Shown here piece by piece: positions 22,900-31,549 of a stretch of DNA of 64,000 nucleotides (the first letter of the stretch is position 1; the number at the start of each line of letters is the position of its first letter). The notes beneath the pieces are model-generated. The model was not told the DNA's origin and ran no database searches. It worked only from the letters and a program-made list of their open reading frames with translations. This stretch comes from an uncultured delta proteobacterium (GTDB taxonomy: Bacteria; Desulfobacterota; Syntrophia; Syntrophales; UBA4778), in contig CAWASK010000001.1 of NCBI GenBank assembly GCA_963784735.1, positions 426,020 through 490,019 on the forward strand, read 5' to 3'. A program made the translations under genes and the position numbers.

Positions 22900-23018
22900 T
22901 TCCTGTATCCAATTCAACCGGCACTCCCGCCGCCCCGGCCTCTGTGCGGCCCAAGTTTTCCTCGACTTGATTTTTGAAATAATATACTCTTTGGACAAAT
23001 TTCAGAGAAGATAAAGGC

Positions 23019-24410
23019 ATGATTTTTCAGGAAAGTGGCAGGAAAGAGCGCAGGGTCGGCAAACCCGCCCCGGTGCTCAATTATAACCTGTTCCGGTATA
23101 GAAGGGCTGTTTTGTCGCTGCACGGCAAGGTCTCCGCTTTTGCGGTCAGCGACAGGTTCTTCCAGGAATACGAGCTGGCGCTGTGCGAGTATTTCGAATG
23201 GCGGGACATAATAATCGGCGACGATGATTTTTCCGATGACCTCTTCCAGGGCGAGGGGGAGATATCCCGATTCCTGGCCTGGTACTCGCTTTACTTCATT
23301 ACCGATGAGCACAAAAAGACCTTCCCGGAGCTGTTTGCCGCGCTGAGGCGCAGGAAGCTCTCCCAGCTCGAAAGGGAGATCCTGGACAGCTATGCCCATA
23401 ACCCTCTCGGATTCTATGAAGTCAAGAAGGTGGTCCCGGGCAGGGGGATGTACCTCAGGGAGCTTTTCGGGGGCGAGACCCGTTTCGTGCACGACCCGGC
23501 GGCTTCGCAAGCGGTTTTCACGTGGGACATCCTGTTCACCGGCATCGTCGGGGCCAGGGGGTTGTTCTTCCTCAGCGATTTCGGGATGATCGTGATCCCG
23601 CCGCGCCTCAAGGCGATCGTGGAGGGGGGTATCTGCTCGATTTACCGGACCCAGAGGAAGAACAGCAAGGAGATACGGCAGCTGCTCCGCTACAAGTCGG
23701 CCGAGGTGTTTGCCTTTGTCCAGAACGTGATCGAGGACTACGAGAGCTTCCACGTGAAGAACTCGGAGGGCGACCCGCTGCTCTTTTCGACCCTGCACTG
23801 CAAAATCGAAGACCCCGGCGCCTTCCTGGAGACCATCAAAAAGACCTCCATTTTCATCCAGGACCACATTGAGTACTCGGCCACGGGGGATTTGACCAGG
23901 GCGGACTACATCTGGGTGAAGAAGGACAGGAAAAAAAACCGCTCCTGGGAGAGCGCGACCCAGGGGATCATTTTGGTGGAAGGGGACCGCTTGAGGGCAA
24001 AGTGCAACTCGCGCTTCCGGGCCGAGAAGCTCAAGGCGATCCTCGCAGGCGTCTTCGGGAAATCCCTGAGCTATGAATGCACTGTATTCGAGGACCAGCA
24101 ATTCGCCCCGGCGGAGCCGCAGGCGCCGATCTTCGACGAGGAGCTCCTGGAGTGCGGCGAATTGCGGGACGTCCTGAAAGAGATCCTGGCCAGGCATTAT
24201 GACAAGTGGACTGACGAAAGGCTCCCCGCCATAGGGAACATTTCCCCCCGGGAGGCGGTCAAATCGCCCCTGGGGAGGCTGCGCGTGAACGACCTCCTCA
24301 AGGAGCTCGAGAACCGCAACGAGCGGGCAGTGCGCAGGGGCTCGAAAACCGCCGGCCTGATGGCCTTTCCTGTCCAGCGGATCAGGGAAAAACTCAATTT
24401 GAGGGATTAG
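23019..24410 (+). CDS. hypothetical protein (463 aa) with a C-terminal DUF2384/Xre-MbcA-ParS-like helical motif
   Basis: Intact ORF with normal composition; the 508-aa antisense ORF is Arg/Pro/Gly-rich shadow. The C-terminal W-x5-LPAIGNISPREAV-x-SPLGR-x5-LLKELE resembles the W...PALGG.TP...G...V..LL motif. The middle region resembles uncharacterised SEC-C-associated proteins (from memory). Confidence 0.7.
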   Translation: MIFQESGRKERRVGKPAPVLNYNLFRYRRAVLSLHGKVSAFAVSDRFFQEYELALCEYFEWRDIIIGDDDFSDDLFQGEGEISRFLAWYSLYFITDEHKKTFPELFAALRRRKLSQLEREILDSYAHNPLGFYEVKKVVPGRGMYLRELFGGETRFVHDPAASQAVFTWDILFTGIVGARGLFFLSDFGMIVIPPRLKAIVEGGICSIYRTQRKNSKEIRQLLRYKSAEVFAFVQNVIEDYESFHVKNSEGDPLLFSTLHCKIEDPGAFLETIKKTSIFIQDHIEYSATGDLTRADYIWVKKDRKKNRSWESATQGIILVEGDRLRAKCNSRFRAEKLKAILAGVFGKSLSYECTVFEDQQFAPAEPQAPIFDEELLECGELRDVLKEILARHYDKWTDERLPAIGNISPREAVKSPLGRLRVNDLLKELENRNERAVRRGSKTAGLMAFPVQRIREKLNLRD

Positions 24411-24415
24411 GGGCC

Positions 24416-24997
24416 TTGAAGAGCAAACAGATCGAGACATATTACGACAGCGGAGCCGTCAAGGAAAAAAAGATATACGTCAATGGCAAGCTGGAAGGCG
24501 AATACGTGTCCTTTTTCGAAAACGGGTCGCCCATGGTCAGGGTCAATTATGTCAACAGCATGAAAGAGGGAGAGGCGTTTTCGTATTACCGCAGCGGTAA
24601 CGTGCGCGAACACGCCTTTTTCGCGAAGGACAGGCTCACCGGCGAGTACCAATCCTTTTACGACAACGGGCAGCTCAAGGAAGAAGAGAGCTACAAAGAC
24701 GGCAAGCTCCACGGGAAATACACCCTTTACCTCAAGAACGGCCAGGTGAAAGAGGAGGAGAATTTCAGCGAAGGCAAATTCCACGGCGACTACACTTCCT
24801 ACTTCAAGACGGGCGAAGTGCGGGAAAAAGGCACGTTCGTCAATGACAGGCGCGAGGGCGATTTCGTGCTCTTCTACAAGACAGGCACGGTCCGGGCGAG
24901 GTGCAGCTACACCGGCGGGAAGCTCGAGGGCGAATATGTCTGCTATGACCGGCAGGGCAAAAAGATTAAGGGAAGACTGCGACACGGAAGCGCTTGA
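24416..24997 (+). CDS. MORN-repeat-variant protein (YwqK family)
   Basis: About 8 tandem repeats of about 23 aa of the form Y..NG.l.eE..Y.dGKLeGey. TTG start 5 nt after the upstream stop. Confidence 0.8.
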   Translation: MKSKQIETYYDSGAVKEKKIYVNGKLEGEYVSFFENGSPMVRVNYVNSMKEGEAFSYYRSGNVREHAFFAKDRLTGEYQSFYDNGQLKEEESYKDGKLHGKYTLYLKNGQVKEEENFSEGKFHGDYTSYFKTGEVREKGTFVNDRREGDFVLFYKTGTVRARCSYTGGKLEGEYVCYDRQGKKIKGRLRHGSA

Positions 24998-25074: not shown

Positions 25075-25928
25075 ATGACTAGAGAGCTTAGTTGCAACAA
25101 CCTGCTTCTCCCCACCGACGGGTCGGACTACAGCAGGGCCGCGGCGGCTTACGGCATTTACGTGGCGAAAAAGATCAGCTGCAGGATTACGGCCCTGCAC
25201 GTCATGGACGTCAAGATCATCCAGGGGCCGCTGTTCAGCGACGTGGCGTTTTACAGCGGGCTGCCGGTCTATTATGAATTCCTGCCGAAAATAGAAGAGG
25301 CCCTGAACAAGAGGGCCGACTCAATCCTGGAGGAGGTGAGGAAGAGGGGGAAAAGTCCGGTGTCCTGGTCGAGGTCAGGAAGATCGAGGGCATAATAGAA
25401 GACACGATAATCCGCGAGGGAGAAAAATTTGATATGATCGTCCTCGCCAGGAGGGGCGAGCATTTTCATTTCAATGCGGGCGGGCTCCTCGGATCGACGG
25501 CCGAGTCGGTTGTGCGCCGGTCGAAAAGGCCCGTCCTGATCACCCCCGCCGATTTCAAGGAAATTGAAAGCATCGGCCTGGCCTATGACGGGAGCGGCCC
25601 GGCATCCAGCGCCCTGAAAATAGCCGCCGAGCTTTCGGAGACGGCGCGCTGGCCCATAACGACCATCATTGTCAGCGAGGACTCGGCCAATGCCGCCGAC
25701 CTTGCCAGGAGGGTCGATGAATTCCTGGAGGACTACGATGTTGACAACGAGACCCTCATCCTGAGGGGCCGGGAAGACAAGGAAATCCTCCGGTTTATAA
25801 AGGAGGGCGCCGTCGAGATGATGGTCATGGGCGCCTACGGTCGCGGCCGGCTCAAGGAGTTCTTCCTGGGCAGCACGACATCGAATGTCATCCGCAGCAG
25901 CGACATCCCGGTGCTGCTGATGCACTAA
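25075..25928 (+). CDS. tandem universal stress protein (UspA family; 1 apparent frameshift in AGGGGGAAAAG near 25350)
   Basis: Two Usp domains. The second ends with the typical GAYGRGRLKEFFLGSTTSNVIRSSDIPVLL block. Confidence 0.8.
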
Positions 25929-25957
25929 ATGTTATCCTCACCTTCGGAGGGAATTGC

Positions 25958-26419
25958 ATGGGAGAAATAGTCCATACTTCGCGTATCAAGATCGTGCGGG
26001 AGACGGGACCCACCCGTCGGGCTTTGATTGAAGGTTTCTCGGAGCCCGTTTACTACGGCGTTCATGGAGGCATTAGGAAATTTTACAAGGTCGATCCGGA
26101 GAAAGAGCATGCGGCAACGCTTGATCACATCGTCGCCGCGACGGCCGGGTGAATGATGGGTACACTGGCCACGTTGCTGGCCGGAAAAAAGATCCCGACG
26201 CCTGAGACCCTTTTCTGGGCAGATGTAGAAGGGGACATCGAGAACGTGAACGGCGTCCTCAAGATCACGACCATCCGGGTGAAAATGCACCTCAAGTGCC
26301 CGGAAGAGAAAGCGGCTGATGCGAAGGAAGCATTTGCCTCCTATATTTCCAAATGCCCGGCAGCACAAAGCGTCAAAGACTGCATCAAGCTGGAGGATGA
26401 ACTGGTCTTGGAGAAATAG
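25958..26419 (+). CDS. OsmC/YhfA-like peroxiredoxin-fold protein with an in-frame UGA (26150-26152): candidate selenoprotein
   Basis: ORFs 25958-26152 and 26153-26419 are in the same frame, separated only by TGA. The TGA sits in AATAG-[TGA]-MMGTLA, where the family has its first conserved Cys. The second conserved Cys (KCPAAQSV) is present. Confidence 0.65.
26165..26184 (+). promoter_or_regulatory. candidate bacterial SECIS hairpin
   Basis: CUGGCCA-CGUUGC-UGGCCGG forms a 7-bp stem (one G-U pair) with a 6-nt loop containing GU. The stem begins 12 nt after the UGA and the loop 19 nt after it. Confidence 0.4.

Positions 26420-29598: not shown

Positions 29599-31549
<1,951 letters not shown>

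Follow-up and report, generated by a model that had tools for sequence, protein, structure and literature searches.

Proteins of the OsmC/Ohr superfamily use a pair of conserved cysteines, of which the first is peroxidatic and the second resolving, and their reduction is lipoyl-dependent. The listed families of prokaryotic selenoproteins have included an "OsmC-like protein" since the survey of the Sargasso Sea (Zhang, Fomenko and Gladyshev 2005; PMC1088965), which set 3 sequences with selenocysteine (Sec) against 10-17 homologues with Cys and gave the family as COG1765 (YhfA) with the motif UxxT. The Global Ocean Sampling (GOS) survey of 2008 counted 5 Sec sequences against 161 Cys homologues (PMC2398784), the family appears again in the 2007 survey of the Olavius symbionts (PMC1976440), and the family is listed in reviews of 2022 (PMC9312934) and 2026 (PMC13188914). 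A literature search combining selenoprotein, Syntrophus and OsmC found nothing. Here we describe a probable gene of this kind at positions 25958-26419 of a 64,000-nucleotide stretch of contig CAWASK010000001.1 (assembly GCA_963784735.1) from an uncultured delta proteobacterium of the Syntrophales; this whole stretch is called the window. A preliminary description of the window, made from the sequence alone, had named OsmC-like proteins as one of the bacterial selenoprotein families, which the surveys and reviews bear out.

An OsmC-family gene with an in-frame UGA codon

The gene and the elements on which the argument depends are as follows.

25958..26419, + strand: OsmC-family gene of 153 codons, candidate selenoprotein gene (ATG 25958, Sec codon 65, TAG 26417-26419)
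25946..25950, + strand: Shine-Dalgarno-like GGAGG, 7 nt before ATG 25958, read from the sequence
26150..26152, + strand: UGA predicted to be read as selenocysteine, residue 65, at the first (peroxidatic) Cys position; TGA in nearly all orthologues, TGC in the rest
26165..26184, + strand: hairpin of the selenocysteine insertion sequence (SECIS) type within the coding sequence, 7-bp stem 26165-26171/26178-26184, loop CGUUGC 26172-26177
26354..26356, + strand: Cys133 (TGC) in a conserved CP motif, presumed resolving cysteine, aligned to the CPVS cysteine of solved OsmC

The TGA at 26150-26152 is the sole interruption of the frame from ATG 25958 to TAG 26417-26419, and it divides the gene into two listed open reading frames (ORFs) of 64 aa (25958..26152) and 88 aa (26153..26419). 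The preliminary description had taken these for two ORFs of the same frame split only by TGA and had called their joined product OsmC-type. Both points hold: there is a single 153-codon frame, and its product matches the Pfam OsmC family PF02566 above the cut-off (42.4 bits against 27.5, E 9.9e-11, residues 56-146). The same product scores 19.7 bits with the NCBIfam model OsmC (TIGR03562; cut-off 85.8 bits) and 15.3 bits with the NCBIfam model SACOL1771 (TIGR03563; cut-off 166.15 bits). The protein thus lies inside the OsmC/Ohr superfamily and outside both of the curated NCBIfam peroxiredoxin subfamilies.

The codon falls in the context ...LDHIVAATAG-U-MMGTLATLLAG..., and Cys133 follows later in SKCPAAQSV. 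Judged from sequence comparison and structure prediction, positions 25958-26419 are very probably one gene, encoding a 153-residue thiol-type peroxidase of the OsmC/Ohr fold in which the first catalytic Cys is replaced by Sec (U65). This reading draws directly on a frame that is conserved and unbroken but for the UGA, on the conservation of that UGA at the Cys column, and on the Cys forms of the gene. It draws further on a conserved hairpin in which synonymous change is suppressed, on the OsmC fold, and on genes of the Sec pathway in the genome.

Fold and catalytic column

The AlphaFold2 model of the protein has a mean predicted local distance difference test score (pLDDT) of 97.3 and a predicted template modelling score (pTM) of 0.89. 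The best Foldseek matches in the Protein Data Bank (PDB) are all OsmC/Ohr proteins (probability 1.00, TMq 0.63-0.79), and the Sec position falls in the middle of helix 54-76 of the model. A search of solved structures with the single sequence gave chance matches only (E 0.75-0.99), and a profile built from the alignment of more distant homologues was needed to reach the solved relatives. Against the solved structures, this profile matched OsmC 1ukk at 1.6e-7 and also E. coli OsmC (1qwi/1nye). The match starts at position 43-58; the strongly conserved N-terminal 55 residues have no counterpart there. The Sec column falls on the cysteine of the AAHAGC/AAHAAC motif of solved OsmC proteins, and Cys133 falls on that of their CPVS motif.

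Both cysteine columns had been predicted in the preliminary description, which placed the TGA at the first conserved Cys of the family and the second in SKCPAAQSV. The profile alignment agrees on both counts, and so do distant relatives: among 31 more distant full-length homologues, the active-site column holds Cys in 24, Trp in 1, and other residues in 6 (A, A, D, G, G, S), of which 3 are also without the second Cys. In the 18 full-length database proteins nearest to the query, the column is Cys in 10 and Trp in 8. The Trp at the Sec column presumably reflects gene callers translating TGA under another table. Public entries with Trp at this column are P0003, P0004, P0006, P0012, P0013, P0014, P0016, P0018, and P0130.

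DNA of the Cys form was obtained for six sequences only, one from a genome (L029) and five from metagenome loci (L175-L178 and L186), all with TGC. Cys forms are continuous and read C-M-M-G-T at the active site. The six show 92-94% identity to one another's clade and are nested among TGA forms of 79-87% identity. They would seem to be a single offshoot of recent date.

Conservation of the in-frame TGA

The gene is present in 12 of 61 related genomes, and most of these matches carry exactly one in-frame TGA. A wider scan used species-representative genomes, of which the best 80 of 126 relatives were taken. The active-site motif located the column in 87 of 89 loci (it missed L114 and L030), and the column is TGA in 86 of these 87 genes and TGC in the remaining one, L029; some of the 87 rows are one genome reached twice, and their downstream 66-mers comprise 83 distinct sequences. 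Among 401 genomes sampled evenly across the phylum, 46 gave a match to the gene (E <= 1e-20), or about 1 in 9. Of the 50 matches, 49 contain one TGA and 1 contains none, and the column is TGA in all 44 of the loci fetched from this search. Metagenome loci were fetched with a Cys-form protein as query, which should favour Cys forms; despite this, 75 of the 80 loci have TGA at the column and only 5 have TGC.

Aligned without gaps, the 64 codons that precede the TGA share 75-100% identity with the protein of the window and are better conserved than the part that follows it. Both flanks of the TGA are under purifying selection. More than 100 distinct orthologues keep the TGA column, the reading frame around it, and the hairpin.

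These counts bear on the simplest alternative, a nonsense mutation or a sequencing or assembly error that turned TGC or TGT into TGA and left a pseudogene or an ordinary Cys form. The assembly is indeed error-rich, with frameshifts in selA, selB, and the genes for a universal stress protein (Usp) and DnaK. However, the same TGA recurs in 86/87, 49/50, and 75/80 independent orthologues, many of them from Illumina assemblies, and selection acts on both sides of it. Contigs assembled from four public runs, which are Illumina-derived and belong to relatives (at least 85% likeness), list no other letter at 26150-26152, and the codon is bridged by one DNA contig (25958-26281) and one RNA-library contig (26105-26199), both from relatives. 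The source organism itself is not shown in the public runs, the best of which holds at most 0.30 of the sampled words. We regard error or private mutation as extremely improbable, in line with the preliminary description, which had argued from the kind of errors in the assembly that the TGA is genuine.

A reassigned genetic code, in which UGA would stand for a standard amino acid such as Trp or Gly (codes 4 or 25) throughout the lineage, would account for the Trp found at the column in 8 of the 18 nearest entries. Yet TGA terminates 787 of the 1426 long open frames of the genome and is thus otherwise a normal stop, and most of the conserved genes searched have no internal TGA. Trp87 is encoded by TGG in 63 of 63 sequences with Trp at that position, the column of the homologues is Cys and not Trp, and the carriers span several phyla according to record titles. 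The phyla carrying the gene are not known to depart from the standard genetic code. This explanation has virtually no likelihood in our estimate. Assembly error, private nonsense mutation, and reassigned code are thereby excluded for practical purposes.

A SECIS-type hairpin under constraint

The preliminary description had noted a 7-bp hairpin 12 nt past the TGA, which we find at 26165-26184 (CUGGCCA-CGUUGC-UGGCCGG), with its pairing kept among orthologues and synonymous change suppressed. The hairpin starts 12 nt and its loop 19 nt after the TGA, and it is present in both the minimum free energy (MFE) and the centroid fold. Across 74 distinct 48-nt sequences, the stem pairs are standard in 98.1% of cells, whereas slid controls reach at most 53.5%; with 105 distinct 48-nt sequences (735 cells), the values are 97.6% and at most 52.2%. 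At the closing pair, 85 of these 105 sequences have CG and 10 have UA; the other 10 are unpaired there. The third stem pair changes from GC to AU once, and wobble-compatible changes in the stem comprise UG>UA (20), GC>GU (9), and AU>GU (34). The second loop base, a G (26173; alignment column 24), is at least 90% conserved.

Synonymous change was assessed in 83 distinct Sec-form coding sequences by comparing codon diversity among sequences with the majority amino acid with that expected from gene-wide codon usage. The ratio of observed to expected diversity drops to 0.22 over codons 70-76 and to 0.39 over codons 66-77; the five blocks beyond codons 66-77 give 0.90-0.95. When a frame of seven codons was slid along the gene (132 positions), the ten smallest ratios were all confined to codons 65-80, and the smallest one clear of codons 66-77 was 0.75. 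The case for the hairpin rests mainly on this suppression of synonymous change and on the retention of pairing.

In five of the six Cys forms, a shared G>T change replaces Ala by Ser and disrupts the central pair of the stem; the sixth retains all seven pairs. This change probably represents one or two events in close kin and is not counted as a test of the hairpin. A distant subgroup (L158-L160, at G412:C30, G365:C6, and G365:C20) with 45-48% identity keeps the TGA in the context ...GG-U-LTGTL... and has a hairpin of other sequence, about 7 nt further 3' and with a GGA loop, in two distinct sequences only. The shifted hairpin of this subgroup would argue for selection on structure over particular sequence.

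Conservation of the stem also bears on the possibility that the locus holds two small genes of 64 and 88 aa, coupled by a stop-start TGA-ATG, which would split the OsmC domain between them. Two ATG codons follow the TGA immediately, public callers give the 87-88-aa half in more than 100 clusters, and both halves are also called separately. Such a break would, however, hit the catalytic residue in the middle of helix 54-76. The continuous Cys forms keep C-M-M-G-T, which marks Met-Met as a family motif rather than a start, and inspection of the sequence upstream of the internal ATG 26153 gave no Shine-Dalgarno at proper spacing comparable to that before ATG 25958. Two coupled genes would also leave unexplained why synonymous change is suppressed in the paired stem 12-34 nt downstream. 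We therefore consider a split gene very unlikely and continue with the single selenoprotein gene.

Selenocysteine machinery

The preliminary description had called for a search of the genome for the Sec-decoding machinery. This search gave a divided result, with selD, selA, and pieces of selB present and an intact tRNA-Sec not found in the 70%-complete assembly. selD scores 386 bits, over its cut-off, and has an in-frame TGA of its own at ...RSAG*ACKIGPG.... selA is over its cut-off in two overlapping frames (306 and 279 bits). The selB-like pieces are grouped within C10:82332-84226 and spread over several frames, and no single piece exceeds the whole-protein cut-off. Several genes for the formate dehydrogenase alpha subunit contain one or two in-frame TGA codons. 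Other likely selenoprotein genes (selD and formate dehydrogenase alpha) were recorded at G000:C13:27617-28546, C11:15255-16043, C1:212288-212881, and C6:60852-62101.

Several observations weigh against the reading of 25958-26419 as a functional selenoprotein gene. As to the hairpin, the folding energy of the 66-nt segment is unremarkable (z = -0.23; 73 of 200 shuffles fold at least as well), double-sided covariation is modest (2 of 7 pairs), and both arms encode Leu-Ala, so that protein constraint adds to the conservation of the arms. The active-site motif of this gene and its close orthologues is U-M-M-G-T, with Gly at +3 and Thr at +4, and differs from the motif UxxT printed for the published family. 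The RNA-library contigs come from relatives, and their presence, depth, and uncovered parts say nothing firm on expression. As to the machinery, the selA and selB frames are broken in the assembly, which fits indel errors without proving them, and the tRNA is not seen whole: no Rfam tRNA-Sec match in the assembly is over the cut-off, the best matches being ordinary tRNAs, and ARAGORN reports 38 tRNAs in the assembly, none of them SeC. With the tRNA-Sec sequences of five relatives as blastn queries, only the last 30-31 nt were found, 100% identical, at C3:146458-146488.

This last result could mean that the family is a true selenoprotein family which this organism no longer decodes, its tRNA-Sec having been destroyed so that a 30-nt 3' remnant stands beside an inserted segment and the gene is a fresh pseudogene. 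The remnant (L122 3459-3489) is internal to contig C3 and immediately follows an unrelated ORF of 196 aa. Its 5' two-thirds are missing, and a relaxed ARAGORN search of C3:145001-151500 gave no intact tRNA-Sec; the broken frames of selA and selB would fit such a loss. A 93% copy of the 3' end follows 3.2 kb downstream at C3:149727-149754 (L122 6728-6755), and between the two copies lie AT-rich ORFs with no obvious integrase (family libraries were not scanned). The upstream flanks of the relatives' tRNA-Sec genes are unlike each other, and synteny does not decide whether the 5' part was lost at this locus.

Against a loss of decoding stand the state of the assembly, the pattern in relatives, and the condition of the other genes. 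At 70% completeness, and with 38 tRNAs that leave some amino acids unserved, the assembly gives no ground for taking a missing selC as lost. A clear tRNA-Sec (74-77 bits) is found in five relatives, and the tRNA-Sec sequence occurs in a genome of the same genus and in five other relatives. In the same-genus genome (G001) and in G007, tRNA-Sec is cut off after its 5' part by the end of a contig, and a separate 3' copy of 27-28 nt is found on a different contig; copies of the 3' end inside contigs thus occur alongside a real selC, a site at which assemblies are prone to break. From these sequences, selC appears to be a site where assemblies break and short 3' repeats occur, a pattern that would fit island integration or att-type repeats at an integration hot spot. 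Apart from indels of the kind found throughout the assembly, no decay is seen in the OsmC-like gene or its hairpin, in the selD with its own TGA, or in several fdhA genes with TGA. We consider the loss of decoding in this organism unlikely. In one relative (G013), the tRNA-Sec (C30:6575-6668) and the OsmC-like selenoprotein gene (C30:18828-19283) are on the same contig, ~12 kb apart.

Genomic neighbourhood

Two of the genes around the selenoprotein gene are split between frames.

25075-25395 and 25434-25928, + strand: tandem universal stress protein (Usp) gene, split in two frames
29890-30513 and 30510-31412, - strand: dnaK (Hsp70), split in two frames

The frameshifted Usp gene is the upstream neighbour on the same strand. 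Downstream, on the opposite strand, there is a response regulator with PocR and PAS domains, and genes for rubrerythrin, SurE, and DnaK are nearby. The frame breaks in Usp, DnaK, selA, and selB probably represent indel errors, which would be common in this assembly.

Seven neighbours (the two Usp halves, the PocR/PAS response regulator, a MORN protein, an SDH protease, rubrerythrin, and SurE) were sought near the gene in 80 genome loci, and none was found there bar one weak PocR match. When the 935 flanking ORFs of 79 loci were clustered, no cluster occurred in more than 9 loci. The OsmC-like gene therefore appears to stand alone, with no conserved operon partner. Elsewhere in the window, two long frames overlap on opposite strands, at 22914-24440 (-, 508 aa) and 23019-24410 (+, 463 aa), with no Pfam match at E <= 0.001.

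Proposed mechanism and significance

We infer Sec insertion in this organism, and likewise the peroxidase activity of the protein, its substrate, and its reductant. In the mechanism that we propose, SelB would bind the hairpin 26165-26184 just downstream of the codon in the mRNA and deliver Sec-tRNA(Sec), by which the UGA at 26150-26152 would be read. By analogy with OsmC/Ohr proteins, the selenolate of U65 would attack a hydroperoxide, and the resulting selenenic acid would be resolved by Cys133 to give a selenenylsulfide. The latter might then be reduced by a dithiol donor, for example a lipoylated protein.

The locus matters first for annotation. Public calls either cut the gene at the UGA or read Trp, and more than 100 clusters of an 87-88-aa "OsmC family protein", begun at the ATG just past the TGA, exist next to separate N-terminal fragments. 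With the gene cut or misread at this codon, the catalytic residue and half of the protein are missing from most records. We know of no characterised selenol-based OsmC/Ohr peroxidase, and the compact, very confidently modelled protein described here is a convenient candidate for the first biochemistry on such an enzyme.

More tentatively, the 153-residue clade could be a distinct OsmC subfamily of anaerobes in which Sec is close to fixed, a view that we hold to be possible but doubtful. If true, the protein would need its selenol in order to function, with a substrate or redox partner that a thiol serves poorly, and the embedded SECIS RNA, rather than the needs of the protein, would keep part of the conserved helix (T-L-A-x-x-L-A-G) in place.

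Comparison with known systems

Selenoproteins of this family are already known, as are their decoding and the fold, and the locus adds no new principle. With the solved OsmC/Ohr structures (1ukk from T. thermophilus; 1qwi/1nye from E. coli; Ta0195, 2onf; Ohr, 6ebg/1zb9), the protein shares the fold, and the two Cys columns align; it differs from them in sequence, with an identity of 9-19%, and in having Sec at the place of the first Cys.

The hairpin resembles bacterial SECIS elements of the fdhF type in its position within the coding sequence just 3' of the UGA and in the G of its apical loop. The SECIS of E. coli fdhF has a bulged U and a GGUC-type loop, whereas the hairpin described here has neither, and its stem is short (7 bp).

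Closest are the published OsmC-like selenoproteins, which come from marine metagenomes and are compared with this clade by their printed motif and description only. According to these, they share with it membership in PF02566, Sec at the N-terminal redox Cys, the existence of Cys homologues, and, right after the UGA, a SECIS-like stem-loop whose small apical loop contains a G. By record titles, the carriers of the present clade are metagenome-assembled genomes (MAGs) of Syntrophales, Desulfobaccales, Desulfomonilia, Nitrospirota, Dehalococcoidales, and Ca. Abyssobacteria. In the catalogued marine family, going by the published counts, Cys homologues far outnumber the Sec forms, whereas the Sec form is near-universal in the samples of this clade. 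What is modestly unusual about the locus is that Sec is nearly fixed in its clade, that the clade ranges widely over anaerobic MAGs of the Thermodesulfobacteriota and Nitrospirota types (as named in record titles), and that public annotation systematically truncates the gene.

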